Shown here piece by piece: positions 35,001-60,800 of a DNA stretch of 64,000 nucleotides. Source of the DNA: Paenibacillus phytohabitans (lineage in GTDB: Bacteria > Bacillota > Bacilli > Paenibacillales > Paenibacillaceae). Location of the stretch: assembly GCF_013141775.1 (NCBI RefSeq), contig NZ_WHOB01000082.1:39922-103921 (forward strand). The letters are read 5' to 3'. How positions within the stretch are numbered: position 1 is the first letter of the stretch; each line of letters begins with the position of its first letter. A program made the translations under genes and the position numbers. The notes below the pieces were generated by a model. That model saw only the letters and a program-made list of their open reading frames with translations, did not search any database and was not told the DNA's origin.

Positions 35001-35330
35001 ATGGACGAACTAATCGAAAAAATCATCCAATTCCGCGACGACAGGGACTGGAAGCAATTCCACGATCCCAAAGATCTGGCGCTCTCTATCTCGCTAGAGT
35101 CTAGCGAACTGTTGGAACTCTTCCAATGGAAGAACAGCCAGCAAGCCATAGAGCAACATTACTCCGACATGCAGGACGAAATCGCTGATATTCTCATCTA
35201 CACGCTAACGCTCGTTCATGATTTGAATATCGACGTAAAGGAAGCTGTCCTTCAGAAAATAAACAAAAACGCGGAGAAATATCCGGTATCCAGTTCCAAG
35301 GGAAGTTCGCAAAAAAGTAAGCGGCAGTGA
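35001..35330 (+). CDS. MazG-like nucleotide pyrophosphohydrolase (small YpjD-type).
   Basis: 'ESSELLELFQW' and 'EIADILIYTLTLVHDLNIDV' MazG helices. GAAGAGGTG RBS. Confidence 0.65.
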   Translation: MDELIEKIIQFRDDRDWKQFHDPKDLALSISLESSELLELFQWKNSQQAIEQHYSDMQDEIADILIYTLTLVHDLNIDVKEAVLQKINKNAEKYPVSSSKGSSQKSKRQ

Positions 35331-35349
35331 ATGAATAGGGGAGAACTCC

Positions 35350-40898: not shown

Positions 40899-40912
40899 AG
40901 GAGAAGTATTAA

Positions 40913-43708: not shown

Positions 43709-45214
43709 CAAATGATTCAAATGTGGGCAACATTAAGGACAAAAACATTCTAACCTTTAAGTTAATAATCTATGTAGAGTGAACTTAAAAATCTAACTTG
43801 CTGTATGGACGAAATCCTGGGTAGCAAGGAAGGCGTCTATCAGCTGGCCATCATTCTTAAGTTCTTCTTAATATAGTAGGGACTCATAAACTTAAATTAC
43901 TGGCCTAAGCGAATAGACGAAATACTAAGATACTGCAATTCATATGAGCGCCTTTTGGTGGGTGTGGTGGAATGGAAAAAAGACCGAATCAATATTAAAT
44001 TATTACCAAAGACCAAGCGTTAAAGGAAACATATGAAGTTTTAAGAAATAAACACATCCCAGAAGGGTGAAAAAAGATTTTCACAATTTAATAATGGTGA
44101 AAACTACCAAACAAAGTTTTCCTGGAAATTATTAGGAAATAAGTGTTGGTCACAAGGTGCTCTACTCAGTACATTGATAGTAGTAAAAAAGGATTGCATC
44201 ACGAGCTCGTAACCACAAAAAACTTAATTTATAAGAATCATTTGCCGATTCATTTTTTGGAGGTGGATTTAGAGGAACCTGAGTATTGGTTGGATGTGTG
44301 TATTCGCTTGCATGATTACTGATGAAGAGAATAAACTGTATTTGGGTGGGAAACTAACAACAAACATTAATGGTTTATGAGAAAATGGGCGAGTTACCTT
44401 AAGGCAGGTCTTACAGACATTTGGATTGTTAAATGGGAGGAAAGAACCTCAATTCAAACATAAAAAAAGACCTGATTTACGGAAAAAATTATATAAATTT
44501 ATAATTCATGATACCTCCTTAAAAGCGTGATCCATACGCTACAGCGAAACGAGGATTTGAACTTTCACGGTTCGCCGCTTTAGACCACATACAACTATAG
44601 AAGGATGCCCAATCGGGTATCCTTTATTTCGCTTTATAGAATCGTATCATAAATAGTAGTTAAGTAGAGTGGAGAATAATTATTATTTTTTTATTTTTAA
44701 TTATGATTTCACTTTCATTCCCCCAACACCTCCCCAACAGAAACCTCCAACGCTCTCGCAATAGCAACCACCTCATAATCCTGCATAAGTCTATATTGAC
44801 CTTCCAATCGCTATAAACTGGTTGGGCTACTTTCTAAGCCGAAGGTTTGTAACCTGGCGAGAAAATCCTTTTGCTTCATTCGCTTAGCTTTTTGAATGGA
44901 CCACTCGGGTTCTGATGATATTTTTGTCACCTGGTGGTTCTGGGCAATGCTTCATTTCGAAGTCGCCTCACAATATTTTATTTTATTTCGATATTCGCAT
45001 TAAAATAATACTTACCTCGCATACAATTGGATTAATACGCACTGAAATTTCTATATATCGTCTATAGACATACCCTTCCAGAAAGGAGGGAGTGTAATTC
45101 AACAACTAATGCACAAATACGAGGAGGAAAAGCGCAAGTTGAATGAACTCGGGCAGTGGTCACTGGAGCAGGGTATTTCGTTAAGCGGCAATGTAGCAAG
45201 CCCAGAGTCGTAGA

Positions 45215-45589
45215 GTGGATGAACTTATTAATCAGATGTATCAAGAAAAGAACGGATATTCACATGCGTTTCGGTTAAACTTCTGTCGTGGAGGAGATGT
45301 GGTGAGCTTTCCAGTATGGTTTATAGAAACGATTCGAGGTCGATTGGATGAGGTGAGCGCACGGATTGAACGTCAATCGGAGCCTAGACAAGCTTTTGAA
45401 GAAGAGCAAAAAGCTTTTCAAGCGTTGTTTGTCTCCATGGATATTGCACGTAAGCCAGAGTTTGAGTATTGGGAAGATAAGCTTTCTTTAAAGCACTCCG
45501 TTATTTATGAACGTCTATATCTACAAGGGTTTAAGGATGGAATGCAGCTTGCTAATGCATTTGCTGCTCCTTCTATTCTCTCAGATTAA
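45215..45589 (+). CDS. Hypothetical protein (GTG start), preceded by a 34-codon ORF at 45109-45213.
   Basis: ORF only. No motif I can name. Confidence 0.3.
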   Translation: MDELINQMYQEKNGYSHAFRLNFCRGGDVVSFPVWFIETIRGRLDEVSARIERQSEPRQAFEEEQKAFQALFVSMDIARKPEFEYWEDKLSLKHSVIYERLYLQGFKDGMQLANAFAAPSILSD

Positions 45590-45733
45590 GACGGAATCCA
45601 AGGTATACGTTAACTTTATGTTGGGGCTGTCCATGCGACAGTCTTTTTTTGTTGTGTATTTTTGGAAGGTAATCCTTCCCATATTGTCGAATTACCATAC
45701 ATATTGTAAATCCAGATGATATGAGGTTGGGCT

Positions 45734-46423
45734 ATGTTTAAAGCACTGTTGTCTCTCTTCAAAAAGTCAGACGCTAAACCGTCACTGGCTGTGCGTAAGG
45801 CACCAACTCCAAAGTCGAAGCCGAAGGTAGCCCCCACACGAATTGGAGAGTTAGGCGAGCATAAAATCAATATCCAACTTGACCAACTACCCAAGGAGTG
45901 TAAACCGTTAAGCGATCTGTTGCTCCCTAATTCTAGGTCACGAACAGGTTACACCCAGGTAGATCATGTTGTTATTTCTCCATATTGCTTATTTGTCATC
46001 GAGACGAAAAACTACAATGGGTAAATTAAGGGTGGACGGACGGATCAGCAATGGTCAGTGAGCAATCGTTATAAGATGTATAATCCGCTGAAGCAGAACT
46101 ACGGGCATATCAGGGCCATTGAGAGTCTGATAAAAGGTGTAGCAGTAGTGAAGTTTGTCTCTATGATCTCATTCACAATGAGATGTCGGTTTAGTATTGA
46201 TCCTGAGCTTCGGAAGATTCATTCGGACGAGCTGGTTGTCTATGATGTGGAACTAAGTGAGTTTATCTCTAGGAAGCTGATTAGTTTGAAGAATGGAACT
46301 CCTGAGCCTCCCATTTCTGTGGCGCAGGCCCAGACCATATACGATCATTTAGTTCAGGCTAATATCACCGATCCCGAGATTCGTAAGCTTCATATACAGA
46401 GAATAAAGGGGAATAAGGTGTAG
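45734..46423 (+). pseudogene. NERD-domain nuclease-related gene interrupted by an in-frame TAA at 46022-46024.
   Basis: 'QVDHVVISPYCLFVIETKNYNG' then TAA then 'IKGGRTDQQWSV...YNPLKQNYGH' in the same reading frame. This is the NERD pattern hVvis..gifviEtKn..G.i.G......W. Confidence 0.6.
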
Positions 46424-46466
46424 CAACAGTAAAATACCTATCATTGGACTAAGGGAGTTAACATAC

Positions 46467-48656
46467 ATGATCAAACAACTACGAAGCTGGTGGAAGGATA
46501 CAGAGATATCTAACTTAATCGGCCGCAAAAAAGTGGACTTTTCCATCTTTCGTGATGGTACGCATATTCCCGTTGAGTTTCATCCGGATTTCCTGGAAGC
46601 GAATCAAGGTCAACAGCCTAACCTGGGTGAAGGAATAAAGGTTAAGCTCTTCTATGAAGATCGAGACTATGAAGCCACGCTATTTAAAATTGATCAAGCA
46701 TCCGCTAGTCGGGAAGCTCTTCAACTTCGCTATAACGGAAATCAGACGTTGAAGGAGTTGTTAATTGAAGTCTTCAAGCATTCCTATTCCTACATTATGC
46801 AAGAGAGAACGAATCAACTAGCAGATGATGCGAAGCGACCTCAGGTTGTTGTTCCTGAAGATCAAGCCGAATACATAGATTTCTTTGCGACAGGAGTTCC
46901 TTTCGAATACCGTTTAGAGTTCATAACGTATCAGCCGAAGCCTAATGTATGGTGGGTGAATCAGGGAACCACCATTCAAGCGGAGAAGGAAGCGGGGATT
47001 CTGTGGGCACCTCTACTGAATACTCAAGGCCGTAAGCTATATCACTGGGAGACGATGAAGGAGGTTAAACAAGGAGATATCATCCTTCATTACTCCAATA
47101 AGGCTATTCGTTATGTTAGCCAGGTTACAGATGCGGCAGTAGAAGCACCGAAACCAGGCTCTATGGCTAATACGGGTTGGCAAGAGGAAGGAAGCCTGGT
47201 TCGCACCAATTACGTAGAACTCATTCCGTTCATTGCGTTACAACAGTTCAATCAGCAAATTATGCAACTGAATATCACCCAAGGACCGCTCCATACTGGA
47301 GGCGGAGTGAATCAAGGGTATTTGTTCCGCTTTTCAAGACAAGGGCTTCAAGTGCTTCAGTCACTCACGACAGAAGTGAATTGGCCTAATTTTACTATTC
47401 TAGAGCAAGATGAGGTTGCCTCCAGTATGGAGAGCTTGCGTGAGGTGATTCCTATTCTACCACCATCCGATTCTAGCATTACAGCTTTTCTCCACCAAAT
47501 CCAATCCCACATCCGCCGCCAAGGCTTCTTTTTCCCAGAGCACCTGATCGAGAACTTCTACCTCTCGCTGAAGGCGAAGCCGTTTGTCATTCTGGCGGGG
47601 ATATCGGGGACGGGGAAGACACGCCTGGTGAAGCTGTTTGCGGAGGCGCTGGGGGCGACGCGGGATAATGAACAGTATACCTTGATTCCGGTGCGGCCGG
47701 ATTGGAGTGATCCTGCGGATCTGCTGGGGTATAAGGATCTGTCGGGCAGGTTCCAGCCGGGTCCGATGACGAAGGTGTTCGTGGAGGCGCGGCAGCCAGA
47801 GAATCGGCATAAGCCTTATTTTATCTGCCTGGATGAGATGAATTTGGCCCGGGTGGAGCATTATTTCAGTGATCTGTTAAGTGTGCTGGAAACGCAGGAG
47901 TGGCGGGACAGTGAGATTCAGACGCAGGAGCTTATCTCTCGTGCCTTGCTGGGTACACCTGAGGATCGAGAGATATATGGCGGCCTGGGCATCCCGGAGA
48001 ATGTGTTCCTGATCGGGACGGTGAATATGGATGAGACTACGCATCCTTTTAGCAAAAAAGTTCTGGACCGTGCAAGCACCCTGGAGTTCAATTACATCAA
48101 TCTGCAGCAGTATCCGCAAGGGGCTGAGCAGGACGCGGGTGATCCCGCTGATCTTAATGAGCTGAATCATCTCTTCCTCCGTTCCGATTATTTGCAGCTG
48201 GTGGATGCCTATGATACTCATCAGGAGCTCGTTGTGCGGACAACGGAGAGACTGGTTCAGATTAATACGCTGCTGGAGGATATCCATGCTCATGTGGGCT
48301 TCCGGGTGCGGGATGCGGTTTGCTTCTATATGATCTATAACGAGCGCTATGGTCTGATGGTTGAGGAAGAGGCGTTTGACTGGCAACTGCTGCAAAAGAT
48401 TCTGCCGCGTATCCAGGGAAGTCATTCCTCCGTGCGCCGGGTGCTGCTTAATCTGATGAAGGTTGCGATAGGTAGCAGTGCCGGCATTACGGTTAATGTT
48501 CGAGAACTCATGGACGATGATGCTTCGCCACTCTATCTGAGATGGGCTGCCGGGCAGAATCCGCCTGGGGTCAAGCATCCGCAAAGTGCCCGTAAATTGG
48601 CTTATATGCTTAGGAGGCTGGAGGAAGATGGATTCACCTCATACTGGCTCTCTTAA
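46467..48656 (+). CDS. McrB-like AAA+ GTPase (Type IV restriction) with a ~330-aa N-terminal putative DNA/modified-base-binding domain.
   Basis: 'FVILAGISGTGKTRL' (Walker A), 'FICLDEMNLARVEHYF' (Walker B/NxxR region), 'FLIGTVNMDE..LDRAST'. 729 aa. Confidence 0.8.
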   Translation: MIKQLRSWWKDTEISNLIGRKKVDFSIFRDGTHIPVEFHPDFLEANQGQQPNLGEGIKVKLFYEDRDYEATLFKIDQASASREALQLRYNGNQTLKELLIEVFKHSYSYIMQERTNQLADDAKRPQVVVPEDQAEYIDFFATGVPFEYRLEFITYQPKPNVWWVNQGTTIQAEKEAGILWAPLLNTQGRKLYHWETMKEVKQGDIILHYSNKAIRYVSQVTDAAVEAPKPGSMANTGWQEEGSLVRTNYVELIPFIALQQFNQQIMQLNITQGPLHTGGGVNQGYLFRFSRQGLQVLQSLTTEVNWPNFTILEQDEVASSMESLREVIPILPPSDSSITAFLHQIQSHIRRQGFFFPEHLIENFYLSLKAKPFVILAGISGTGKTRLVKLFAEALGATRDNEQYTLIPVRPDWSDPADLLGYKDLSGRFQPGPMTKVFVEARQPENRHKPYFICLDEMNLARVEHYFSDLLSVLETQEWRDSEIQTQELISRALLGTPEDREIYGGLGIPENVFLIGTVNMDETTHPFSKKVLDRASTLEFNYINLQQYPQGAEQDAGDPADLNELNHLFLRSDYLQLVDAYDTHQELVVRTTERLVQINTLLEDIHAHVGFRVRDAVCFYMIYNERYGLMVEEEAFDWQLLQKILPRIQGSHSSVRRVLLNLMKVAIGSSAGITVNVRELMDDDASPLYLRWAAGQNPPGVKHPQSARKLAYMLRRLEEDGFTSYWLS

Positions 48657-51042
48657 TCAGGCGGTGGAATTGCTCCGTATCGAGACGGAGCTTTTTACGC
48701 TATATGTGCAGGGGCGGCCCTATCATCCTACGGTGGAGACGTTGCAGCTTCATCGCTCCCCGCAGCAGGAGTGGGTGAATGCTCAGCTTGGAATTACCTG
48801 CTCGCAACGGCTTGGGGAAGTGCAGATTAAGGTGTTCTCGCCTGAAGCCTATGGGCTGGTAGACTGGCAGCCGGGAGAGTCGTCCTTTCCTTGCTTTTAT
48901 GAGACGCAGCCGTATGAACTGGTGATTCAGAACAAGACAACGGATAACCTAACTTTTTACCATGAAAATGTGCTGCTACGGCAGGCGGTTAAGCCGCTGG
49001 GTGAGTCTATCCTTGCAGGTGTGCTGAACTTTGGGAATGAGGTTGGGCTGACGGAATGGGAAGTTCGTAGTAATGGACAGACCTTGTTGCGGGTGGAGAT
49101 GGAGATTTTCCCCTCAAAGCTGGATTATAAGCTGGATTACCAGAACCTTCTGCATGAGGTGAATGCACAGATCTATAATTTGGCCTTTGATTTTCTGCGC
49201 CGGACCTACCAGCTAACTGGCCTTAAGGAGACGCAGCATCAGAGCCTGACGGAGTTCTTCGCCATCCTACAGCATGTATTCAGACAGCTCTTGGATGCCG
49301 TTGAGCGGATCAACAAGAATCCTAATGTTGCACTGCTCCAGGAACGCCGATTAATGGATGCAGGCCGGGTCAAAAAAGCCGGAAGAGAGAACATTCGCGA
49401 GCTCGCGAAGCATCCTGAACGGTTAAGAGAAGACATGGACCATGGCTTCTTAACGATCGGCAACCGGACCTACACAGCATCGCACTTAATAGAGACACGG
49501 AAGCGCCTTGCCTATGATACAAGTGAGAACCGGTTCATCCGCTGGATGCTGGAACGTATTCACGGGAAGCTGAAGGAGCTTAAAAGCCGCTGGAAAGAGA
49601 ACAGCCGAACCTCAGATTCGCTACTCATCCGAAGAATCGACACATTGCTCACTCAGCTAGAGCGGGTACTTAAGATTGATTTCCTGCGGGAGGCTGGAGC
49701 ACTGAAGCAGATGTCCGTTACGCTGGTGCTGCAGATGGCCCCCGGATACCGGGAGGTCTATCGCTGTTATCTCATGCTGCTCAAAGGCCTGTCGATCCAA
49801 GGCGACTTGCTTCGCCTATCCATGAAGGATGTCGCGCAGCTCTATGAATACTGGTGCTTCCTTAAGCTGAATCAGCTTCTGGGGCAGAAGTATAAGCTAG
49901 TGAAGCAGGATATTATTAAGGTGAACCGGAATGGGATCTTTGTGACGCTGGATCGCTCGCAGAGCGCTCAGATGGTCTATGAGAATCCGCTCAACGGGGA
50001 ACAGTTCATCCTGTACTACAATGCGATTCCTGGAACAGACAGGACCCCGACGCTCAGTCAACGTCCTGACAATGTGCTTACCTTGAAGAAGAAGGATGCG
50101 GGTCAGATCAAGGAGTATAAGTATGTGTTCGATGCGAAGTATCGGTTGAATCCGGCGTATGAGGGGACTTCCTATCAGCAGAAATATAGACAGCCTGGAC
50201 CGGAAGAGGATGATATTAATACGATGCACCGCTACCGGGACGCGATAGTCTATCAGGAGACAGGTTCCGGGGAATACGAGCGAAGCATGTTCGGGGCGTA
50301 TGTGTTATTTCCGTATCCTGATGAGGAGCGGTACAAGACCCACCGTTTCTACAAAAGCATCGGGCTGCTGAACATTGGCGCCTTGCCGTTCCTGCCGAAT
50401 TCTACAAGCCTGGTGGAGCAATTCTTAGCTGAGATTATTCAGGATAGTCCGGAAAAAGCTTACGAACGCTCGACACGTCCGCGCGGCACGAAGGAATACT
50501 ACGTCAATCAGCTTGCGGGCAAAAATGTGCTGGTCGGATCTGTCCGGGGGCCGGAGCAGGTGGCGGTGGCGGTGCGGAAAGCTTTTTATCATATGCCGCT
50601 TAAGAATCTTGCCAGCCAGAAGCTCCTAACCCAGATCGAATACATTGCTATGTGCCAATCTCGAAAGAAGTTCATTGATCCCGCCAAAACAGGCATTCAC
50701 TGGGTAGGGAAGGTAGCGGATTGGAAGGTGCTGCGGCGTAAGGAGATTCAGGAAATCCCTTGTCGGCCGGGTACCGAGGAGGAGCTGTATGTACGCTTCA
50801 CGATTGAGGAATGGAAGAACATAGCCGTTCCTATTACGCTGGGGGGCCAAGGGATCTACACAGTGCTCTATACCAGTAAGTATATCCTGGACCGGGCTTT
50901 GGAGATTGCCGAGCTCCGTCTAGAAACAGAGGAAGCGCTGCGGGAATGGCGGGAGAAGCGTCGCAAGGGCCGGGTGAAGGTAAAGCTGGATCATGAGGAG
51001 TATGTGGATTTGGGTAGGGTTGTGGAGGTTAGGAATATATAG
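48628..51042 (+). CDS. McrC-like PD-(D/E)xK nuclease partner with a long N-terminal extension, possibly DUF2357-type.
   Basis: Overlaps the McrB 3' end by 29 nt. 'PDNVLT...YKYVFDAKYR' D..D-A-K nuclease motif. 804 aa from ATG 48628. Confidence 0.65.
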   Translation: MDSPHTGSLNQAVELLRIETELFTLYVQGRPYHPTVETLQLHRSPQQEWVNAQLGITCSQRLGEVQIKVFSPEAYGLVDWQPGESSFPCFYETQPYELVIQNKTTDNLTFYHENVLLRQAVKPLGESILAGVLNFGNEVGLTEWEVRSNGQTLLRVEMEIFPSKLDYKLDYQNLLHEVNAQIYNLAFDFLRRTYQLTGLKETQHQSLTEFFAILQHVFRQLLDAVERINKNPNVALLQERRLMDAGRVKKAGRENIRELAKHPERLREDMDHGFLTIGNRTYTASHLIETRKRLAYDTSENRFIRWMLERIHGKLKELKSRWKENSRTSDSLLIRRIDTLLTQLERVLKIDFLREAGALKQMSVTLVLQMAPGYREVYRCYLMLLKGLSIQGDLLRLSMKDVAQLYEYWCFLKLNQLLGQKYKLVKQDIIKVNRNGIFVTLDRSQSAQMVYENPLNGEQFILYYNAIPGTDRTPTLSQRPDNVLTLKKKDAGQIKEYKYVFDAKYRLNPAYEGTSYQQKYRQPGPEEDDINTMHRYRDAIVYQETGSGEYERSMFGAYVLFPYPDEERYKTHRFYKSIGLLNIGALPFLPNSTSLVEQFLAEIIQDSPEKAYERSTRPRGTKEYYVNQLAGKNVLVGSVRGPEQVAVAVRKAFYHMPLKNLASQKLLTQIEYIAMCQSRKKFIDPAKTGIHWVGKVADWKVLRRKEIQEIPCRPGTEEELYVRFTIEEWKNIAVPITLGGQGIYTVLYTSKYILDRALEIAELRLETEEALREWREKRRKGRVKVKLDHEEYVDLGRVVEVRNI

Positions 51043-51255
51043 GGGAGTAAAGGATGCGTAATAGTAAGTGAAATAGAAAACGCAGCGGTACAGAGTTTAT
51101 CTGTATCGCTTTTTTTGGTGTATAACGATGAAGATTTAGTGAGATCTATTACAAATATTCCTATTCTAGGTATACTTAATGGCAGAGCTCTTAGGGAGCA
51201 GCCTTGTTTACGAAGCTGGATTACTGTGTGTTCTTAAGCGAACTAGCTTTTTACG

Positions 51256-54246
51256 ATGGAGATCAAATATATATTTCAGGAGTCTGATATGAACAGAGAA
51301 GCAGAAAGTGTTACAAAGTATTTCAGAAGTGCTGTGGCGGCCCAGGCAAATACAGGCTTGGATTTTAAAAACGATACCTTTTTTATTATTGAGCCCTCTC
51401 AATTGTTGGAGGGAAGAATTCATAGTGAGGTGTGCGAGAAGGTCTTTGTTGAAGCTAATAAGGATTCCAATGATGAGGGTTACAAGCCTAAAAAAACATC
51501 TATTAACGTCATTGCTTGTATTAAAACAGTAAAGACAATATATGAAGCAAGTGCCAAAATACAAGATGATATTGACGAGTTGACAGGACTGTTTTTTGTA
51601 CCTGCAAAATTAAACGATAACGGCTACCTTTCATTCGACTCTGATAATAAAAAGCTGCCATGGTTCCCCAGAGAGTACTTGCAACCGATGATAGAACCTA
51701 AATTAGCTATCGGTAGTGCAAGTAATGTTGATTCTTATATAAGTGACCATGTTGATCAAGTACAGTTGATTAAAACATGGGACGATTATCTCTCGTTTGT
51801 TATAGAGTTTTATGAAAAGATAACGAGTAGTAAATTTGAAGATAGCAGCATTACTAATGAAGAAGAGCATACTCAGATTGAACTGGAAAAGAATATGTAT
51901 CTTTTTATTGATAGCACAGTTAATGCTACATTCAATATTATGAGGCTGTATAATCACATCCTTGAAGATTCACAGGCTAAGCCCCTATATGATACCTTCA
52001 TTTCAACATCAGAAGCGATCTCGGAGCCATTGATTCCTAATTCACTGTCTAATATGTATTTGCATGCTGGACAAATGGGTGGAGAGTACCCACTATCTCC
52101 TTCTCAAAGAGAAGCCATTAATCATTACAATAATATGAATAACGGTGAAGTGCTGGCTGTCAACGGGCCCCCGGGAACCGGGAAAACCACGCTCTTACAA
52201 TCTATAGTTGCTGATACATATGTGAAAAGAGCAATTTCAGAAGACAAGCCGCCTCTGATTGTAGCAACATCAACCAATAATCAAGCTGTTACGAATATTA
52301 TTGCCTCCTTTGGCAATATTAAAAAAATGTTTGATTCGAGTCTTGAAGAACGTTGGGTAGAAGGTGTTCATAGCTTTGCTACTTATTTCCCTTCTGGAAT
52401 GAAAGTGAAGGAGGCGGCACAAGGCTATCAAATCACCAATAATAAAGGCGAATACTTTTTATCAGATATCGAGACGGAAACGAATATTAATAATTCCAAA
52501 GCTAAAATAATAGATCAATGCGGGAAACATTTTAGTAAAGAATTCAATACAGTGGGGGAGTGCCGCATTGCTCTTCACCAAGAGTTATTGTTCTTGGAGG
52601 AAAAGAAAAAAAATCTACTTGCCCTATGTGAGGAATCTAAACAATTCCATAATCCTGATTTCCCCATAAATCTGCAGTTAGATAAGCTTAAGGAAAAGAT
52701 AGATGGTTTCGAAGAGCAAATTCATAGATATCAAGATAGAGTATCTGGGTGGGAAGCGACATATAGCAAAGTACCTTACTTGGTTAGACTTTTCTCGAAA
52801 ATAATTAGAAAAAATCTCAAAAGAATTCAAACGGAATTCAGGCTATTTATTTCCACGGATGAGCTTACGATTCTTAATGAATACATGACTGTTGAAGACA
52901 TCAAGGAAATATACAGTCTCAAAATTTCTGAACTCCGGAGTTCATCTGTATCCTTACAAAAAGATGCACAATTCATTGAGGACTGGATTAAGAGTTATGA
53001 CGAACAATTGAAAATACTGAGAGAGCACGGGGTCACCCTCCATGATCACGAATCTGATATGTATAAGATTTCGATGGATACAATCAATGAACTAATTGAT
53101 AAGAAAATTCGTTACCATGAGTTTTGGTTAGCGGTTCATTACTTCGAATGTAGGTGGGCAAGCGGCGAAGATGAACTGAGTGACAAGCAAAAAGGCAGAA
53201 ATTATGAAAATGTACTTGTTAAATTGTATAACAGACTCTCTTTGATTACTCCTTGCTTAGTAATGACTTTCCACACGCTTCCCAAGCAATTCTTGGCATA
53301 TACAGGTCAGAAGAATACTTTTCTCTACAACTTTATTGATTTGTTAATTGTAGATGAAGCTGGACAAGTATCACCGGAACTTGCCGCTGGCGCATTCGCA
53401 CTCGCAAAGAAAGCGGTTGTCGTTGGGGATGTTTATCAGATTGAACCTGTATGGAGTGTTAACAAGTCGTTGGATAATACATTGGCTCTGACTAGCGGGT
53501 TAATCCAATCAGCTGACGAATACAGTAATTTAGAAGAGCTTGGTTTGACCAGCTTCGGATCAAGTGTAATGAAGGTTGCCTCAAAAAGCTGTAAATATGA
53601 AAAATATGATGAGAAGGGTTTGTTTCTATCCGAACATCGGCGTTGTTATGATGAAATCATAGATTATTGCAATAAGCTGGTGTATAGAGGAAACCTCATT
53701 CCTATGAGAGGAAGAGGAGCTAACCGTAAGAATCGTCTGCAAGCTTGGCCGCAAATGGGATTTCATCAAATTGAAAGCGATAAATCAAAGAAACAAGGAG
53801 CCAGTAGGTATAACCATACGGAGGCAGCTGAAATCGCTGAATGGGTGCATCAACATTTTGATACAATCCGTAGTGCATACCCGGAAGATGCGGAGAATAA
53901 TCTGATTGGAATAATAACGCCGTTTAAATCTCAAGTAGGATATATAAAAGCAGCATTAAAGAGAAAAATGCCTCAATTATGGAAAAAAATAAGTGTGGGC
54001 ACTGTGCATGCATTTCAGGGGGCTGAACGGAATATAATCATACTCTCAACAGTATATGGTGTGAATGATGGATGCTATTTTATTGATGCTAATAAGAGCC
54101 TCATGAACGTAGCCGTATCGCGGGCCAAAGATCATTTCTTTGTATTTGGGGATACTCGTTGCTTGAAAAATAACCAAAGTAGCGCTAGCGGACTGCTTAA
54201 ATCGGTTATGCAGGGAACAGTGAACGCTAAGGAAGTGAAAATATAA
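51256..54246 (+). CDS. Upf1-like SF1 helicase (AAA_11/AAA_12) with a ~300-aa N-terminal domain of unknown function. Alternative start at ATG 51289.
   Basis: Walker A 'VNGPPGTGKTTLLQ', Walker B 'LLIVDEAGQ', motif V/VI 'GTVHAFQGAERNIIIL', 'AVSRAK'. Large coiled insertion inside the RecA1 domain. Confidence 0.7.
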   Translation: MEIKYIFQESDMNREAESVTKYFRSAVAAQANTGLDFKNDTFFIIEPSQLLEGRIHSEVCEKVFVEANKDSNDEGYKPKKTSINVIACIKTVKTIYEASAKIQDDIDELTGLFFVPAKLNDNGYLSFDSDNKKLPWFPREYLQPMIEPKLAIGSASNVDSYISDHVDQVQLIKTWDDYLSFVIEFYEKITSSKFEDSSITNEEEHTQIELEKNMYLFIDSTVNATFNIMRLYNHILEDSQAKPLYDTFISTSEAISEPLIPNSLSNMYLHAGQMGGEYPLSPSQREAINHYNNMNNGEVLAVNGPPGTGKTTLLQSIVADTYVKRAISEDKPPLIVATSTNNQAVTNIIASFGNIKKMFDSSLEERWVEGVHSFATYFPSGMKVKEAAQGYQITNNKGEYFLSDIETETNINNSKAKIIDQCGKHFSKEFNTVGECRIALHQELLFLEEKKKNLLALCEESKQFHNPDFPINLQLDKLKEKIDGFEEQIHRYQDRVSGWEATYSKVPYLVRLFSKIIRKNLKRIQTEFRLFISTDELTILNEYMTVEDIKEIYSLKISELRSSSVSLQKDAQFIEDWIKSYDEQLKILREHGVTLHDHESDMYKISMDTINELIDKKIRYHEFWLAVHYFECRWASGEDELSDKQKGRNYENVLVKLYNRLSLITPCLVMTFHTLPKQFLAYTGQKNTFLYNFIDLLIVDEAGQVSPELAAGAFALAKKAVVVGDVYQIEPVWSVNKSLDNTLALTSGLIQSADEYSNLEELGLTSFGSSVMKVASKSCKYEKYDEKGLFLSEHRRCYDEIIDYCNKLVYRGNLIPMRGRGANRKNRLQAWPQMGFHQIESDKSKKQGASRYNHTEAAEIAEWVHQHFDTIRSAYPEDAENNLIGIITPFKSQVGYIKAALKRKMPQLWKKISVGTVHAFQGAERNIIILSTVYGVNDGCYFIDANKSLMNVAVSRAKDHFFVFGDTRCLKNNQSSASGLLKSVMQGTVNAKEVKI

Positions 54247-54277
54247 AATTCTACAACTGGAAATAAACTGAATCCCC

Positions 54278-54330
54278 AAAAAAAGCTCAAGCGCAGGCTT
54301 CCCATCCCTGCCTTTGAGCTTTTTTCTATG
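54278..54330. terminator. Bidirectional-looking terminator AAAAAAGCTCAAG...CTTTGAGCTTTTTT.
   Basis: 11-bp outer stem with A-run and T-run on either side. Confidence 0.6.
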
Positions 54331-54894
54331 CAGTTCAAGACTCCCCTCTGGAAATTTATTCTTCCGTCGTAATACTTTCGCCATGTTCGTTCGGGGGGAT
54401 ATCAGCGATGATAGAACCTGTAAGATGATAACGCCGAGCGCGTTCATCCTACATCCGGTTCTTATCCGGGCGGGCGTAACGAGGCGGGGATCTCAGGTGA
54501 TCCCGCAGTGCCGGCATGTATGTTACGGTATCCTGTACGGTCCGTTTCGGTAAGAGTCCCTAATCGCCTTCTAAGCGACGTTGGTACAGTACTCGATTTC
54601 CATCGAGCGACAATTGAAGCGCAATCTGAGTAAGGAAACCAATGGACAGAATCTCTGGCGGCTAGTAGAGCGCACTGCGGAAGGGCTTTGCAATCCGTGG
54701 ATACCGATGGTGCGGCAACTGGGGAGGCTGTGGCAAGGATTGAAGGGAACGAAGGCCGGCTGAAGTAGGGTTAGCCTCGGACCTCAAGTAGTCCTCCCGG
54801 ACCTCCCGGCAGGGCCGCCTGTCTCAAACGTGATTCCGCCTGAGCTGCAGCGGGATTCTGTCAGCCATTGGTCAAACATGAAGGAGGCATACAT

Positions 54895-55998
54895 ATGTTG
54901 AAGCAAATAACGATTCAAGCGGACCAGCGCGGTCTGCTCTTTCATAAGGGAAGTTATGTGAAGCGGCTGCTGCCGGGAACCTACCGTTACTTATCATGGT
55001 CGCAGCATACAGTGGCAGTACTGAATATTGCCAAACCGTTTGGTGTCGAGGGCAAAGACCTGCAGCTGTTCCTACAGGATGATGAACTCCTCCGGGAGCT
55101 CGATGTCGTACGCGTACAGGATCATGAGATTGTTCTGCACTATGAGGATGGCCAATTCATGCAGCTGCTGAAGCCGGGTGTGTATGCTTATTGGAACCTC
55201 CTGAGAAAGCACACCTTCGTACATACGGATATAGGGCAGCCGGAGCTGCCTGCCGGGATCGACCGCTCGATTATCTCGAAGCTTACTCCGTATGTGCAGT
55301 GCTGCGAAATCGCGAGCTACGAGCAGGGATTCCTGTTCTATGATCATACGCTCAAGCGGGAGCTTACGCCTGGTAAGTATTATTTCTGGAAGGGTCCGGT
55401 CTCGGTGCTGACGAAGACGGTCGATCTAAGACAACAGCAGATGGATCTGGTTGGCCAGGAAATGATGACAGAAGATAAGGTCTCGCTGCGTCTGAACTTC
55501 GTATGCCAGTACACCATCGTAAGTCCGCACCGCGTTCTGGAGATGAAGGCTTTTGACGAGCAGATACACATCCAGCTACAGCTCCTGCTCCGGGAATATG
55601 TCGGGACGCTGAAATTGGACGATCTCCTGAAACGAAAAGAGGATGTTGCCACATTCATTCTGTCCCGTATCCAGGAGAAGGAAGAGGCGTTCGGGGTGCG
55701 TTTCCTCGGGGCGGGGGTGAAGGATGTAATTCTGCCGGGGGAAATGAAAGACATCCTAAACACCGTGCTGCTCGCAGAGAAGAAGGCGCAGGCGAACCTG
55801 CTTACCCGCCGGGAAGAGACGGCTTCCACGCGCAGCCTGTTGAATACAGCGAAGCTGATGGATGAGAATCAGACACTGTTCCGTCTGAAGGAGCTGGAAT
55901 TCCTCGAGAAAATATGCGACAAAATCGGCTCTATCTCTGTAACCGGCGGTGGAGACCTCCTGGAGCGGTTAAGCTCGCTTATCGGCAGTAATAAGTAG
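54895..55998 (+). CDS. SPFH/band-7 (stomatin/prohibitin-like) domain protein with a ~180-aa N-terminal soluble region and no TM helix.
   Basis: AAGGAGG RBS. C-terminal half has the SPFH pattern and a coiled-coil tail ('VKDVILPGEMKDILNTVLLAEKKAQANL'). N-terminal half unassigned. Confidence 0.55.
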   Translation: MLKQITIQADQRGLLFHKGSYVKRLLPGTYRYLSWSQHTVAVLNIAKPFGVEGKDLQLFLQDDELLRELDVVRVQDHEIVLHYEDGQFMQLLKPGVYAYWNLLRKHTFVHTDIGQPELPAGIDRSIISKLTPYVQCCEIASYEQGFLFYDHTLKRELTPGKYYFWKGPVSVLTKTVDLRQQQMDLVGQEMMTEDKVSLRLNFVCQYTIVSPHRVLEMKAFDEQIHIQLQLLLREYVGTLKLDDLLKRKEDVATFILSRIQEKEEAFGVRFLGAGVKDVILPGEMKDILNTVLLAEKKAQANLLTRREETASTRSLLNTAKLMDENQTLFRLKELEFLEKICDKIGSISVTGGGDLLERLSSLIGSNK

Positions 55999-56134
55999 AT
56001 CGCCTCCTGGCGGTCTATTTTAGTGCGGATAGATAGAATTAAGCTTAGTCAAAGTTCCGGAAAACAGGTAATTACATAGAAGCTATAGAACTAAGCTATA
56101 GAGCGGATTAAGCCAAACCCGAGGAAGTGACTCC

Positions 56135-56929
56135 ATGGACAACAAAGCAAAGAAAATCCTCATGAACACCTTCTGGACCTCCGCTGGCTGGAAAAGCAGC
56201 CCTGCTGCCTTCACCGGTGAGGATTTCGACTATGCCAAAAGCAAAGGCCTGATGTTCGATCCTGTGACAATTACTCATGACGAGATTGTCTTGCGGCTGC
56301 ATGAGCTGCATGGGGCGATTACCAAGGAGCGGGCAGCGGCCGCGTTCCTGCACAGTCTGTCGACGAAGAAGGTCTATTTGCGGAGCGCCCTGTCAAGCTG
56401 GGTTCTGACTTCCGCGCTACCAGTACATACTTATGAGCAGCGGAGTGTTGTCCGGCCCAATTATAGCAGCTGCGGGGATTGTAACTTTTACAGATTAATG
56501 TCAGACCGGGAATATATAAATAATGATCTGAATGTGCTGAATTTCGAACGGGTCAAATGGGGCGGTATTCGTCTGAACTGGCTTTTATACTGCTGGATGG
56601 ACCTTGAATTATTAAGTAAAGAAGAAGAGTTCGAGGTTACCACCGAGGATACTGCCATACTCTCCGGGATGCTCGAAGCGATACGGGATTGTGCGGACCA
56701 TGAGAGTGCGCGGATGCTGGAGAAGCGGTGGAAGGACGTAATTCCCTCCAGTAAGAATGAACGGGATGTGTTGATGGAGGTCTGGGGCTATGCCGGATTG
56801 CTGGTACCGCGGGACACACCCCGGAAGCGCAAAGGCGGGAGTCATGATTTTAACTCTATGGCGGAGTGGCAGGGAGAAGACGGCTATTCTCAGGAGGCGG
56901 TAGAGTTGTATTTCGGCGCGTTTTTGTAG
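56135..56929 (+). CDS. Hypothetical protein (264 aa) immediately upstream of the NADAR gene.
   Basis: ORF with GAGGAAG RBS. No motif recognised. Confidence 0.45.
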   Translation: MDNKAKKILMNTFWTSAGWKSSPAAFTGEDFDYAKSKGLMFDPVTITHDEIVLRLHELHGAITKERAAAAFLHSLSTKKVYLRSALSSWVLTSALPVHTYEQRSVVRPNYSSCGDCNFYRLMSDREYINNDLNVLNFERVKWGGIRLNWLLYCWMDLELLSKEEEFEVTTEDTAILSGMLEAIRDCADHESARMLEKRWKDVIPSSKNERDVLMEVWGYAGLLVPRDTPRKRKGGSHDFNSMAEWQGEDGYSQEAVELYFGAFL

Positions 56930-56986
56930 ATTTACTATGAACTTGAATGACGGTTAGATAATATAGGACAAGGAGGCACGCTCATT

Positions 56987-57730
56987 ATGAACACCCCGGA
57001 ACACATCCAGAAGATACTTGAAGACAACAGAAGAAAGCTGCTGGCTCTCAATCCCGAAGAACGCTTTATACGCTTCTATGAAACAGATAAGCCTTACGGT
57101 TGTTTCTCTAATTTTGCCAAGTACCCCATTGTGTTAAAAGGCAAGGCGTGGGCAACCACGGAACATTATTTTCAGGCGCAGAAGTTCACAGGCACTGAGC
57201 ATGAGGAAGAGGTCCGGCTCGCCGGAACGCCGATGGAGACAGCACGGTTGGGGCGGGACCGGAGTAAGCCGCTTCGTTCCGATTGGGAAGAATGCAAGGT
57301 TGAGGTCATGAGAGAAGCGCTGATGGCTAAGGTTGAGCAGCATCCCGCTATAAAGTCCATCCTGTTGTCGACGGGCGATTGTACCTTAGTTGAACATACG
57401 GCCAATGATGCCTACTGGGGAGACGGCGGTAACGGCCAAGGCGGCAATATGCTGGGCAAGCTGCTGATGGAGATTCGGAACGGATTAGATGAATATGTGC
57501 CGGAATTCTTGCTGCCGCAATGGCTGGTGTATCCTGAAATTGAGCCGTTCAGCATTGGCTGGAGAATGGGGTATGGTGAAGATTACTTGATTCATTTACG
57601 GGAATGGAGAGAGCAGCAGTCGCCGGAGGCGCTGAAGGAGTACGATGCGTACTTCACTCCGCCGGAGGAGTGGGCTGAGGCTAAAAGAATCCAAGAGGAA
57701 TATAGGAAAAAGAATAAGGATCAGGACTGA
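56987..57730 (+). CDS. NADAR (YbiA/DUF1768) family ADP-ribose-processing hydrolase with a ~70-aa C-terminal extension.
   Basis: 'YGCFSNFAKYPI', 'TTEHYFQAQKF', 'NDAYWGDGGNGQGGNMLGKLLMEIR'. AAGGAGG RBS. Confidence 0.8.
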   Translation: MNTPEHIQKILEDNRRKLLALNPEERFIRFYETDKPYGCFSNFAKYPIVLKGKAWATTEHYFQAQKFTGTEHEEEVRLAGTPMETARLGRDRSKPLRSDWEECKVEVMREALMAKVEQHPAIKSILLSTGDCTLVEHTANDAYWGDGGNGQGGNMLGKLLMEIRNGLDEYVPEFLLPQWLVYPEIEPFSIGWRMGYGEDYLIHLREWREQQSPEALKEYDAYFTPPEEWAEAKRIQEEYRKKNKDQD

Positions 57731-57790: not shown

Positions 57791-57857
57791 CTACGTTTAG
57801 CGCTGTCGTGTAGAATAAATTGATGTAGAAAAAATGAAAATAATGGAGGAAAAGGCA

Positions 57858-60800
57858 TTGAGATTTAAACGGATAATCGCCTTGTTGCTAGTGTTTGCCA
57901 TGGTCATACCGACGGGCTTGATACATGCGGCTGATCTGGTATTGAAAGAGGATGCAAATATAGTGAAGCAGATGCCTTCTGGTTTGACAGAGCTGGAAGG
58001 TATTATTGATGTTACGGATGAACCGTATGAGGCAGAGATAATTGTTACCTCTGCGTATGGGATATTGGCTTATAGTCCACAATCTGTCCAATTATCAATT
58101 GAGGAAGAAAATCCGGTAGGCAAGCGGATTGTGGGCAACAAACTGCTCATTGATCAAGGAGCTCCAGCTGGAACGATTACCATCAAAGCTGTATTGCCTG
58201 GGAATTATTACACTACTCATACTATTACTGTGAATTCAGGTGGGGGTACTCAGCAACCGGCGCAGCCAAGAATAGCCCATACGCTGCTGGATACAAGTGA
58301 TCTTAATCATCTCATCGTAAGTGCAACGGCACTGGATGGCGGAATTCACAATGTACAGATAAGAACATTTTATAAGAATGCCTCAGGAATGGTAGGGGGA
58401 GACATTTCCAATCTGACCCGGGAAGGCAATAGTTCAGTATTTTCTGCAGACATTACCGATCAGGTCTCCAGTAAGATGAGAGATTCCAATGCCTATGAAA
58501 TGACTTATTTCTTCACGATGTCTAATGAAGATGAGGAATTCCTGCAATATCCCGAGGTTATTGACATGAACTCGTTGGAGGGTGCTTTGACGGTTAAGCT
58601 GGCTGATCCACCGGATTTATCCACAGCAGCTATAGTCGAGCATACCCCGCCTGTTGTTACCAGTTTCGACAACATACCCGCTACATTCAAGATTACGCAG
58701 TTGCAGGAAGGCGAAGTTCCAACAATCAATGTCTATTACAGATCAGAATTAAATTCCAACAGTTTAAGTATAGTGAAGGGAATGGGCCAATTAACCCATG
58801 TGGACGGTGATACGTATACCGTTAATTTAGCTGACCCCGAATTTAAACAATTGAAAGCCCATACGATAGAGTACTTTATATCCACGAATCGGGGAAACCA
58901 ATGGGTTTATTACCCGCAGGGCATGAATCCTTCTGCTCTTACCGGCTTATATAGCACCTCCATCCCACGCGAATTATACGGTTCGGAGGAACCGGAAGAG
59001 CCGGAAGAACCGGAGATAAAAAAGGCTGACTTAGAATCCAAAATTTTCGAAGCGTCCGACCTTTGGTTTAATAGCATTGAGGGGAACGGTGTAGGAGAAT
59101 ATTCTAGACAAGCAAGAGACGCTTTACTCGATGCCCTTATGCAAGCAGAAGATGTGTACTACTTTTCAGAAAATCAAATGCAAATTAACAATGCATATCA
59201 AATGTTATCCGATGCAATAGAGATATTTCGCGCGGCAGCAGTGACTCCGCTTCAGGCTATTATTAACGATGCACAATGGCAATATGACTATTACCCGATA
59301 GGGTCAGATTTCGATCAATATCCGGCTGAGGCAAAAAATGCGTTAGGAGCTGCTATTACTTCGGCTAAAGAATGGAATAATCCGACCTCTACCGAAGCTG
59401 AGCTAGATGCTGCCTATCAAGCTTTAGATGCCGCAATTACAAAATTCTTAGACTCCATAATTAAGAGGGGAGATCCCTCGGTACTCCAGGAGAAAATTGA
59501 TGAAATTCACAACATTTTGATATTTACTTCGGAAGGGGATGGACCAGGACAGTATCCTTACTCAGCATACAGAGATTTGGATAGTGTCATCGATGCCGCA
59601 AATCATTTGATTTTTTATTCAGGAACCCAAGCACAAATTAATGAGGCATACGAGAATTTGAAGGACGCATTTCAAATTTTCCTGGATGCCAAAAATCCCG
59701 ATGCAGATAAAGTCGCGCTCCAGGCTGCGATTGAGACTGCCAAGGCATTTTTGAACAACAATGTGGTAGGTACCAAAGTTGGACAATATCCGGAAAATTC
59801 GAAGAACATCCTCCAAGGTTCCATAGATGCTGCGTGGGAGACGTTAATCAACCTGATGTCTACACAAATTGAGGTTGATCAAGCGTTAACTTCTGTGAAT
59901 AATACATTGGCGGATTTCAAGGCATCTGTCCTCGTACAAGGAAATCAGCTATTCCTTCACGTAACCATCATTGATGCGAAAGAGCTCCTGGATAATAGTC
60001 CAGTAGGAGAGGGTGCTGGTCAATTCCCATCTGATGCTATGCATGCACTTGAAGCAGCAATTGGTGTGGCGGAAACGGCAATCAGCGGACCGATGACGCA
60101 AGTCGAGCTTGATGAAGCGCGGCAAGTGCTGGAAACAGCAGTCACGACCTTTAAAGCTGCAGAAATCAAGGCAGTAGATAAAACAGCGTTACAGGGCAAA
60201 ATTGACGACGCGACATCTGCTTACAATATGAGCCGGGTTGGCACTGATTTTGGAGAATATCCGGCTGAAGCAAAAACGGCTTTGAAGGCAGCCATTGACG
60301 CTGCTAAAGTTCTGATCGACAAGTCAGCAGCTTCGCAAGCTGAGATTGACGCGGCAACTCAAACACTAAATGCTGCAATTACAACCTTTTATGCTGCAGC
60401 GGTCGAAATGGGAGATTACCTTAAACTTCAAGAAAAAGTTATAGAAGCGCGATCCCTATATCGGGAAAGTCCACGAGGCGATGGGATCGGTGCATACCCA
60501 GATGCGGCATTTAATGACTTTGATGAAGCTATAGAGCTAGCTAATGAAATAGCGACCTATCTAGCCAGCCAAACCAAACTGGATAAGGCCCTCCAGGCAT
60601 TATCGGATGCAATGGAGAAATTCGAAGAATCTGTAATTAAGGCGGGAGACAATACAGCACTACAAGCCGCAATTACTGAGGCGAAAATCCTCCTGGAGGG
60701 AAGTACTGAAGGAAATGCTGTAGGAGAATATCCGCTAGAAGCCATGGACTTACTGGCATCCGCGATTACAGATGCAGAAAACTTGGCAAATGAAGAAGCG

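Follow-up and report, generated by a model that had tools for sequence, protein, structure and literature searches.

A PLD-less member of the MkoC (type II Mokosh) helicase family in a defence island of Paenibacillus phytohabitans

Gene, transcription signals and genomic surroundings

The analysed window, a stretch of 64 kb, carries on its + strand an uninterrupted open reading frame of 996 codons at 51256-54246. The continuous reading frame given in the initial annotation is thereby confirmed, with its likely start shifted to 51289. Judged from the sequence context, translation most likely begins at this second ATG instead of 51256, resulting in a protein of 985 aa. The ATG at 51289 has an AGGAG located 6 nt upstream, while the in-frame upstream ATG at 51256 comprises no ribosome-binding site. 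Furthermore, a homolog with 98% identity (P0001) has a length of 985 aa, the annotated start of an 89%-identical Paenibacillus ortholog aligns to M12 of the 996-codon frame, and the PADLOC alignment to MkoC likewise starts at residue 12. The gene and its signals are as follows:

51084-51110, + strand: terminator-like hairpin with an 11-bp stem (5 GC pairs) followed by TTTTTTT, which ends the upstream McrB-like/McrC-like operon and separates the helicase gene from it
51148-51176, + strand: candidate sigma-70-like promoter of the helicase gene (ATTACA, 17 nt, TATACT), a consensus match only (9/12), such sites being no commoner in the region than expected by chance
51278-51282, + strand: Shine-Dalgarno sequence AGGAG, 6 nt 5' of the ATG at 51289
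51289-54246, + strand: MkoC-like helicase without PLD, coding sequence of 985 codons and a stop codon
54279-54325, strand not assigned: bidirectional intrinsic terminator with A-run, imperfect 18-bp stem and U-run

The hairpin upstream, the promoter-like site of its own and the hairpin downstream agree with the earlier description of the gene as standing alone. The downstream terminator folds with -25.1 kcal/mol (z = -5.5), none of 200 shuffled sequences folded equally well, and its position coincides with the right edge of a low-GC island. Searches against Rfam gave no match, neither for the whole window at gathering thresholds nor for 54240-54900 at E<=1.

The GC content of the helicase gene is 0.38 vs 0.52 for window positions 1-31000, and its neighbours comprise a BPTD_3080-family restriction endonuclease with a type III methyltransferase, a Schlafen-group-3 helicase protein and, immediately upstream, a pair of a McrB-like protein and a DUF2357/PDDEXK_7 (McrC-like) protein. 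Together with the low GC, this set of genes bears out the proposed location within a defence island. A tRNA marking an integration site was not found in the window. The gene at 35350-37242 of the window showed a weak similarity to Nhi/AbiO.

The upstream pair raises the question of a three-gene system, in which the McrB-like GTPase and the DUF2357/PD-(D/E)xK McrC-like protein would supply the nuclease and the helicase would be the third component. The pair is found directly upstream both in the window and in the 89%-identical Paenibacillus locus, and a homologous pair adjoins a 54%-identical Syntrophobotulus-type homolog, which amounts to 3 of the 11 homolog contexts. However, it is absent from the other 8, it is divergently oriented at the Syntrophobotulus-type locus, and in the window the pair is separated from the helicase gene by the terminator and by the promoter-like site of the latter. 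Moreover, PADLOC assigns the pair to a self-contained two-gene candidate system (PDC-M26A/B). A joint system of the three genes is hence regarded as improbable. No conserved partner gene was found among the 11 contexts; two ORFs of 123 aa, each lying shortly ahead of the helicase gene at one of two homologous loci, were considered as a shared partner and turned out to be unrelated to each other.

Domain architecture and the missing nuclease

Based on its sequence, the protein is a Upf1-like SF1B helicase with a complete motif set. The domains are arranged as follows:

51289-52080, + strand: Mokosh-II-specific N-terminal domain of mixed alpha/beta type, about 264 aa in length, conserved and under purifying selection
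52081-52476, + strand: N-terminal part of RecA1 with motifs I and Ia, Walker A GPPGTGKTT at 52165-52191
52477-53160, + strand: helical, coiled-coil-like insertion within RecA1 of about 230 aa, according to the predicted model
53161-53442, + strand: C-terminal part of RecA1 with motifs II and III, Walker B IVDEAGQV at 53347-53370
53443-54168, + strand: RecA2 with motifs IV (LSEHRRC), V (GTVHAFQGAER) and VI (NVAVSRAKD), Pfam AAA_12
54169-54243, + strand: short C-terminal helix and end of the protein

Pfam assigned AAA_11 to residues 280-397 and AAA_12 to residues 783-967. All SF1 motifs from I to VI are present and invariant across the clade of the protein, the Walker A lysine being K299 in the 985-aa numbering (K310 in the 996-aa frame) and the acidic pair of Walker B being D689 and E690. 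When PDB sequences were searched with a profile and the full model (pLDDT 84) was compared by Foldseek, only Upf1-like helicases were matched; the neighbours comprised Sen1/SETX, UPF1, IGHMBP2, DNA2, Aquarius and ZNFX1, with SETX, UPF1 and IGHMBP2 as the best Foldseek matches. The earlier assignment to the Upf1-like SF1 helicases is therefore upheld. Polarity (5'-3') and substrate are only predicted from this family membership. In the model, RecA1 is interrupted by the insertion, whose long helices (422-452, 460-493, 535-579 and 596-624) show a high pLDDT and which would sit where Upf1-like helicases have their 1B/1C accessory domains.

The closest kinship was observed to MkoC of type II Mokosh. 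Residues 12-985 matched positions 1-963 of the 1136 positions of the PADLOC MkoC profile (E=3e-291, 967 bits), and the first 404 residues were collinear from residue 1 with the validated reference MkoC (SG150 from E. coli 5-366-08_S1_C1, 1171 aa; E=2e-50). This agrees with the kinship to type II Mokosh stated in the initial annotation and, at the level of sequence, the homology to the validated E. coli protein includes the N-terminal domain. In type II Mokosh the nuclease of MkoC is a C-terminal PLD with the active site HxK(x)4D, as described in the literature, and the unmatched profile positions 964-1136 correspond to exactly this part. The profile match ended at 963 not only in the window protein, but also in a 991-aa Tenacibaculum homolog and in P0161, while the PLD-bearing controls P0249 and P0169 matched the profile across 1-1135, the tail of P0249 matching MkoB as well. 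PLD-bearing MkoC proteins carry a linker and a PLD domain of about 170-190 aa beyond the position of the short C-terminal helix. In the helicase itself, neither a Pfam PLDc match nor an HxK(x)4D motif was found. The RecA2 part is 42% identical to residues 1-151 of E. coli YjhR, and this alignment ends ahead of the YjhR PLD. A profile built from 42 MkoC PLD tails and run at maximum sensitivity gave nothing in the six-frame translation of the 64-kb window (best E 1.6) or within 8-10 kb on either side of 10 homologous loci; as a positive control, it recovered the fused MkoC of Frateuria with 3e-54. The view of Mokosh II as an N-terminal nuclease followed by a helicase, as given in the initial annotation, thus has to be corrected: its nuclease sits at the C-terminus, and the window protein has none there.

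A further explanation would be that a PLD-bearing MkoC gene has decayed and that the present gene is what is left of it, without function. Remnants of MkoC genes exist, as can be seen for yjhR of E. coli K-12, an annotated pseudogene in which only the C-terminal part of the helicase and the PLD are left. In the present case, however, the protein ends exactly at a domain boundary, and this end is common to more than 100 clusters of uniform length from many genera. The helicase motifs are invariant, the dN/dS amounts to 0.18-0.27 in every region including the N-terminal domain (about 0.2 altogether), and the stop codon is followed by a clean terminator and no trace of a PLD. Decay is thus a very unlikely explanation.

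Another way to account for the missing PLD would be a hidden nuclease in the 264-aa N-terminal domain or in the coiled-coil insertion, which would make the protein a canonical nuclease-helicase. The N-terminal domain is conserved and under purifying selection without an assigned function, and the clade alignment showed invariant polar residues (K79, R128, D208 and H259) besides nearly invariant ones (E129, E136 and D148). Pfam gave no match for residues 1-275, in line with the earlier remark that no motif could be assigned there, and PHROGs gave no match for the domain either. The check for a nuclease fold suggested earlier turned out negative against the PDB, where neither a solved fold nor a nuclease was matched by the domain model, which is moderately confident (pLDDT 73), so that a divergent catalytic fold could be missed. 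Altogether, a nuclease concealed in these regions seems quite unlikely.

Tailless clade and proposed role

The lack of a tail is a property of a whole clade. Among the 120 closest clusters at 90% identity, 119 consist of complete proteins and all of these 119 are tailless. At 50% identity, the 148 representatives comprise 94 tailless proteins, 42 with a PLD and 12 with other tails; on more distant relatives, the same chassis bears a PLD, a TIR, TPR repeats or something else at its end. Among the non-PLD tails are a ThsB-like TIR, TPR repeats and a small module of no assigned family, and attempts to identify one C-terminal tail family of 8 members were without result. This variety agrees with a sensor/motor chassis whose C-terminal module can be exchanged.

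Identities to the window protein amount to 57-89% in Paenibacillus, about 60% in Brevibacillus, about 50-59% in Clostridia and 60% in a Nitrospiraceae MAG, the closest named relative being that of Paenibacillus sp. IHBB 3054 (89%). The distribution is patchy and at odds with taxonomy. The NJ tree that was built is only indicative. A megablast search with the locus in 5,426 genomes of E. coli gave no match, and the window is not enterobacterial. When contigs were searched with the clade alignment, the generic GPPGTGKTT pattern dominated the result: mostly distant relatives were returned and none of the close clade, and the search served only to supply controls (L010 and L012).

With regard to the surroundings of the homologs, 8 of the 11 contexts are clearly related to defence or mobile elements (Wadjet, BREX, type I CRISPR-Cas, Mrr, HipA/MazE, SLFN-TIR and McrBC-like genes), while 3 (Brevibacillus, Alkaliphilus and Aminipila) are not obviously so. 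The latter, together with the lack of an effector domain in the helicase, could point to a helicase outside defence that serves mobile elements or the RNA/DNA metabolism of the host as an accessory and would lie in variable regions by chance. Upf1-like helicases have many roles outside immunity. However, the patchy distribution does not track taxonomy, most contexts are defence islands, the GC content is aberrantly low, and the closest characterised homolog is an anti-phage protein. A role outside defence is consequently considered rather unlikely.

With a confidence somewhat above even, we favour the interpretation of the protein as an effector-less member of the MkoC chassis family, acting as a single-gene anti-phage or anti-mobile-element protein. 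According to this interpretation, the N-terminal domain would serve as sensor or regulator and the helicase core as ATP-driven motor, which would move 5' to 3' along phage ssDNA, RNA or RNA/DNA intermediates. Since no nuclease is built in, interference would proceed by one of two routes. Either the motor itself would unwind or strip replication or transcription intermediates, comparable to Sen1, Upf1, MOV10 and ZNFX1, which have no nuclease domain of their own, or a nuclease encoded away from the helicase gene would be recruited.

As a more far-reaching and tentative proposal, to which we give less than even weight, the tailless clade might represent a functional nuclease-independent immunity, in which the N-terminal domain and the Upf1-like motor alone block the propagation of phages or plasmids, for example by dismantling ssDNA or RNA replication intermediates or R-loops. 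If so, MOV10, ZNFX1 and other antiviral helicases without an effector would have a bacterial counterpart in this clade, and the logic of recognition would reside in the Mokosh chassis, not in the PLD, the various tails (PLD, TIR and others) serving as optional amplifiers. A tailless form that defends alone would be a rare case of helicase-only immunity in bacteria and would strengthen the parallel in evolution to the Upf1-like antiviral helicases of eukaryotes.

In the publications consulted, no member of the tailless clade was found among the experimentally tested proteins. According to the Mokosh discovery paper, the tested PLD-bearing system no longer gave defence once the active site of its PLD was mutated, and therefore the chassis alone was insufficient there. 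In one report, the only phage against which Mokosh II gave protection was an ssDNA phage. The B. megaterium protein SG149 (named 'Mokosh type II' and negative in the same paper) was considered as a tested tailless Firmicute form. Since its N-terminus is unrelated and only motifs I/Ia align, its negative result is uninformative on the tailless clade.

Given the 967-bit match, HMM-based defence finders almost certainly call the gene 'Mokosh type II', and published genome reports describe such matches as helicase plus PLD nuclease. Since the nuclease is missing in a large Firmicute clade and in the Tenacibaculum homolog, counts of Mokosh II and mechanistic statements on it would partly concern a different protein. 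The same N-terminal domain and helicase bear a PLD, a TIR, TPR repeats, a small module or nothing, which marks the chassis as sensor/motor. The variety of tails therefore provides a natural experiment that separates sensing from killing in Mokosh.

Comparison with known systems

Like Nhi, the window protein is a single-gene defence candidate based on an SF1 helicase, and the initial annotation had proposed an Nhi-like architecture. The resemblance is superficial and goes no further than one gene that encodes an SF1 helicase with an extension at its N-terminus. In contrast to Nhi, the core is Upf1-like and not UvrD-like, in agreement with a published helicase phylogeny, where Nhi falls into the UvrD-like branch of SF1 and MkoA/MkoC into the Upf1-like one. 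The PADLOC Nhi model did not match the helicase at E<=0.01, and the tested Nhi-like protein has a recognisable N-terminal nuclease region, whereas none was detected here. An Nhi-like nuclease-helicase is thus already refuted at the level of sequence homology, and we regard it as the least credible of all explanations. Altogether, the initial annotation holds with respect to a single-gene, Upf1-like helicase in a defence island that is homologous to Mokosh II, but not with respect to the Nhi-like build and the premise of an N-terminal nuclease.

To Hhe, PDC-S37, ProA and the helicase-like protein of PLuB, partial matches of the helicase core were observed that cover the RecA regions only and lie far under the family cut-offs (111 bits vs 999 for PLuB, 65 vs 1500 for ProA and 27 vs 2000 for Hhe).

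In the case of type I Mokosh, the RecA2 part matched the MkoA models (E=1.5e-42, residues 695-985). In contrast to MkoA, Pfam revealed no Ser/Thr kinase domain, and the N-terminal domain is not common to MkoA. Moreover, no MkoB/PLD gene was found in the 64-kb window or within 8-10 kb on either side of 10 homologs.

Several eukaryotic Upf1-like helicases that have no nuclease domain themselves take part in RNA surveillance or in defence against viruses and transposons. The core fold and the motifs are shared with UPF1, Sen1/Senataxin, IGHMBP2, MOV10/MOV10L1, ZNFX1, DNA2 and Aquarius (Foldseek E 1e-18 to 1e-12), while the identity is only 12-16%, the N-terminal domain and the 230-aa coiled-coil insertion are absent from them, and the window protein comprises no CH, zinc-finger or other eukaryotic accessory domain. 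The MOV10L1/PLD6 parallel has been drawn in published work.

With MkoC of type II Mokosh, finally, the protein has the chassis in common from residue 1 to the end of RecA2 (N-terminal domain, Upf1-like helicase and long insertion), as well as the single-gene organisation and the defence-island habitat. It differs by the lack of the C-terminal PLD nuclease, by its size (985 aa, calculated about 113 kDa, compared to the reported 132-kDa monomer of Mokosh II) and by an identity of only about 32-37% to PLD-bearing relatives.

Gene start, transcription signals and helicase core

The open reading frame of the MkoC-like helicase comprises 996 codons without interruption and extends from 51256 to 54246 on the plus strand. 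Translation most likely begins at the second in-frame ATG (51289), which would yield a protein of 985 aa, since this codon is preceded by AGGAG at a distance of 6 nt, while the first ATG (51256) has no ribosome-binding site. Moreover, the 98% identical relative P0001 is 985 aa long, M12 of the reading frame is aligned with the annotated start of an 89% identical Paenibacillus ortholog, and the PADLOC alignment begins at residue 12. The preceding gene ends at 51042, and the following signals flank the helicase gene:

51084-51110, terminator-like hairpin with T-run after the end of the upstream gene
51148-51176, promoter-like site ahead of the helicase gene
54279-54325, hairpin between an A-run and a U-run after the helicase stop codon (-25.1 kcal/mol, z = -5.5)

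Based on these elements, the gene possesses its own transcription signals, in agreement with the initial annotation, in which it was described as standing alone with its own start region and terminator.

Pfam assigned only AAA_11 (residues 280-397) and AAA_12 (residues 783-967) to the protein, i.e. the two halves of an Upf1-type SF1 helicase, and no family over the first 275 residues or residues 400-780. All helicase motifs are present (I, GPPGTGKTT; Ia; II, DEAGQ; III, GDxxQ-type; IV, LSEHRRC; V, TVHAFQGAER; VI, NVAVSRAKD) and are invariant in 45 homologs. A search of the family profile against PDB sequences gave matches confined to Sen1, UPF1/NAM7, DNA2, IGHMBP2, ZNFX1 and Aquarius. The full-length AlphaFold2 model (pLDDT 84, pTM 0.76) predicts an N-terminal alpha/beta domain, RecA1, RecA2 and a single C-terminal helix, after which the chain ends; RecA1 is predicted to be interrupted by ~230 residues that form a helical, coiled-coil-like insertion. 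Foldseek against the PDB ranked SETX/Sen1, UPF1, IGHMBP2, Aquarius, DNA2 and ZNFX1 at the top (E 1e-18 to 1e-12). Pfam halves, motifs, profile matches and fold ranking thus all bear out the proposed Upf1-like SF1 helicase.

N-domain, missing PLD tail and family

The first 404 residues are colinear from residue 1 with the N-terminus of SG150, the validated E. coli MkoC of 1171 aa (E=2e-50). Landmarks invariant in the clade are matched in SG150 (YFRS/YWRN, PREYLQP/PRDLLEP, FNIMRLYNHIL/FHILSLYDHLL), and PLD-bearing representatives align as well, from query residue ~17. Judged from these alignments, the N-domain, which was modelled with only moderate confidence, is a Mokosh-II-specific module that occurs alongside the PLD in canonical proteins. 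This co-occurrence argues against the N-domain, in which a nuclease was suspected earlier, as the effector; a nuclease hidden in the N-domain or in the insertion is considered improbable.

The PADLOC-DB model of MkoC (type II Mokosh) matched the protein with E=3e-291 and 967 bits, covering profile positions 1-963 of 1136. Three tests indicate that positions 964-1136 represent the PLD module and that this module is absent here. Firstly, the product of E. coli K-12 yjhR, which is cited in the literature as a fused Mokosh, has a PLD domain of ~190 aa with HSKIVIED behind helicase motifs V and VI; our protein shares 42% identity with YjhR residues 1-151, where the alignment ends at query residue 981. 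Secondly, a profile built from the 42 PLD tails of relatives and run without filters gave no match in the six-frame translation of the 64-kb window (best E 1.6), and the HxK(x)4D motif, found in 40 of the 42 PLD tails, does not occur in the protein. Thirdly, the PLD-bearing PADLOC controls P0249 and P0169 were matched over profile positions 1-1135 (the tail of P0249 also matches MkoB), whereas the match ends at 963 for the protein studied here, for the relative P0161 and for a 991-aa homolog from Tenacibaculum discolor (Bacteroidota; locus L012, 9686-12661), which likewise lacks a PLD. Tailless "MkoC" thus also occurs outside the Firmicutes, and some of the Tenacibaculum proteins published as "Mokosh type II" may be devoid of the nuclease.

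The large protein search yielded over 2,400 relatives. The 120 closest 90%-identity clusters originate from Paenibacillus, Brevibacillus, many Clostridia, Sporomusa and a Nitrospiraceae MAG; apart from a few shorter fragments, nearly all measure 960-1010 aa, and all 119 with a complete C-end are tailless. An exhaustive search of 50%-identity representatives gave 1,048 matches below 1e-30. Tails were scored in the best 148 of these with a complete helicase end: 94 had none, 42 a PLD, 8 a shared small tail without family match, 2 a TPR tail (P0177, P0182), 1 a ThsB-like TIR in place of the tail (P0256) and 1 an orphan tail. The tail common to P0161, P0183, P0201, P0224, P0238, P0248, P0252 and P0255 consists of a disordered linker and a conserved module of ~70 aa without family match. 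In a rough neighbour-joining tree, our protein falls into an all-tailless block of ~40 clusters. Elsewhere in the tree, tailless and PLD-bearing forms are interleaved, which suggests that the C-terminal module was gained or lost repeatedly. A dead remnant is highly improbable: dN/dS against the Paenibacillus ortholog was 0.18-0.27 in all four regions, so that the tailless gene is maintained and is not a decaying fragment like K-12 yjhR.

Genomic surroundings

The GC content is 0.38 in the helicase gene and 0.43 in 32000-54300, compared to 0.52 in 1-31000. The following features surround the gene:

34247-37242, plus strand, DinB_2 protein (190 aa), MazG-like protein (135 aa), then Schlafen-group-3 helicase protein (630 aa; Pfam E=4.5e-102 for the Schlafen-group-3 domain)
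37842-43708, plus strand, BPTD_3080-family restriction endonuclease (1018 aa; NCBIfam 1379 bits), then type III methyltransferase (931 aa; PADLOC 1315 bits)
43709-46466, ~2.7 kb with short ORFs only
46467-51042, plus strand, overlapping pair of McrB-like AAA_5 protein (729 aa) and DUF2357/PDDEXK_7 McrC-like nuclease (818 aa) (PADLOC PDC-M26A, E=7e-55, and PDC-M26B)
54340-54870, GC-rich stretch of ~530 bp between terminator and SPFH gene, no convincing ORF
54868-57730, plus strand, SPFH/Band-7 protein (376 aa), 264-aa protein without family match, NADAR-domain protein (247 aa)
57819-63998 and past the window end, plus strand, very large ORF (>2,060 aa) with multiple FIVAR and DUF4972-like repeats

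The low-GC stretch with the Schlafen-group-3 helicase, the type III-like genes and the McrB-like/McrC-like pair substantiates the defence island noted before. The MazG-like and SLFN-type proteins may form a separate defence module; the 630-aa protein has weak PADLOC matches to PDC-S41, AbiO and Nhi, and the Nhi/AbiO-like similarity in the window belongs to it and not to the MkoC-like helicase. By its gene content, 37842-43708 looks like a complete type III-like restriction-modification system. The adjoining 43709-46466 probably holds decayed defence genes, since the syntenic Paenibacillus locus L001 carries intact NERD and DUF8426-Mrr_cat genes at this place; a 121-aa ORF (46058-46423) resembles the nuclease-related domain NERD over no more than its final ~37 positions.

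Downstream of the helicase, a 133-aa minus-strand ORF (54046-54447) overlaps the terminator. Rfam gave no match in 54340-54870 at a cut-off as loose as E<=1; this stretch may serve the SPFH gene as a long 5' leader or mark the island/chromosome junction. NADAR domains are linked to the reversal of ADP-ribosylation. L001 also has 264-aa and 386-aa genes 3' of the helicase, in a different order. The giant ORF probably encodes a surface or adhesin-type protein, and its repeats account for the strongly positive AT skew between 60 and 64 kb.

Ten homologous loci were compared with the window. The McrB-like/McrC-like pair adjoins the helicase in 3 of these 11 contexts, namely the window, a close Paenibacillus relative and a 54%-identical Syntrophobotulus-type locus, and this recurrence may be noteworthy. 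A three-gene system with the pair is nevertheless doubtful and given little weight, as the pair is absent from the eight other loci and divergently oriented in the Syntrophobotulus-type locus; it is probably an independent type-IV-restriction-like system. Other neighbours were Wadjet JetABCD with a Prim-Pol element, BREX with type I-D CRISPR-Cas, HipA/MazE/Mrr with type I CRISPR-Cas, an SLFN-TIR protein, and IS66/Mrr/recombinase, while those at three loci were ordinary or of unclear kind. No gene recurred in all 11 contexts, and no PLD was found in the flanks of the homologous loci. Such a pattern is typically shown by self-contained defence or accessory genes that move between variable regions. 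With contexts varying in this way, the housekeeping ortholog pattern that would have spoken against a defence role was not seen, and a non-defence helicase is rather unlikely, the distribution being associated with defence islands.

Proposed mode of action and relation to known systems

The protein combines a complete Upf1-like ATPase/helicase core and a conserved Mokosh-specific N-domain with its own transcription signals and no nuclease. Altogether, we slightly favour a single-gene anti-phage or anti-plasmid MkoC-like helicase without built-in nuclease. The N-domain would serve sensing or regulation, and the core, by analogy to family members, would translocate 5' to 3' on single-stranded nucleic acid. 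The motor itself may interfere by unwinding or stripping intermediates, as Sen1, Upf1, MOV10 and ZNFX1 do, or a nuclease encoded elsewhere may be recruited. The sole phenotype published for Mokosh II in a broad panel is that a 132-kDa monomer protects against a ssDNA phage, which would be in keeping with the recognition of single-stranded intermediates of replication. The chief counter-argument comes from the tested E. coli protein, for which the PLD active site is indispensable: in the Mokosh discovery paper, defence was abolished by mutations in the helicase ATP site and likewise by mutations in the PLD active site.

Among known systems, the Nhi-like architecture of the initial annotation could not be maintained, because the PADLOC model of Nhi gave no match at E<=0.01 and Nhi belongs to the UvrD-like helicase branch; an Nhi-like protein has a next to negligible probability. 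Type I Mokosh was rejected for want of a kinase and an MkoB partner, and Hhe, ProA and PLuB gave partial matches far below the cut-offs. In the searchable literature, we found no account of a Mokosh clade devoid of PLD or of MkoC relatives with a TIR tail, nor a description of TPR tails or the shared ~70-aa-module tail as Mokosh variants; genome reports label MkoC matches as "helicase plus PLD" without further comment. The protein is of use as a caution for annotation and as an entry point to the mechanism of Mokosh. Its counterpart by homology is the sensor/motor part of type II Mokosh, like which it would work, but the defining effector feature, the PLD, is wanting. For this reason it is not classed as a bona fide type II Mokosh, and it is a variant of a known system rather than a categorically new one.
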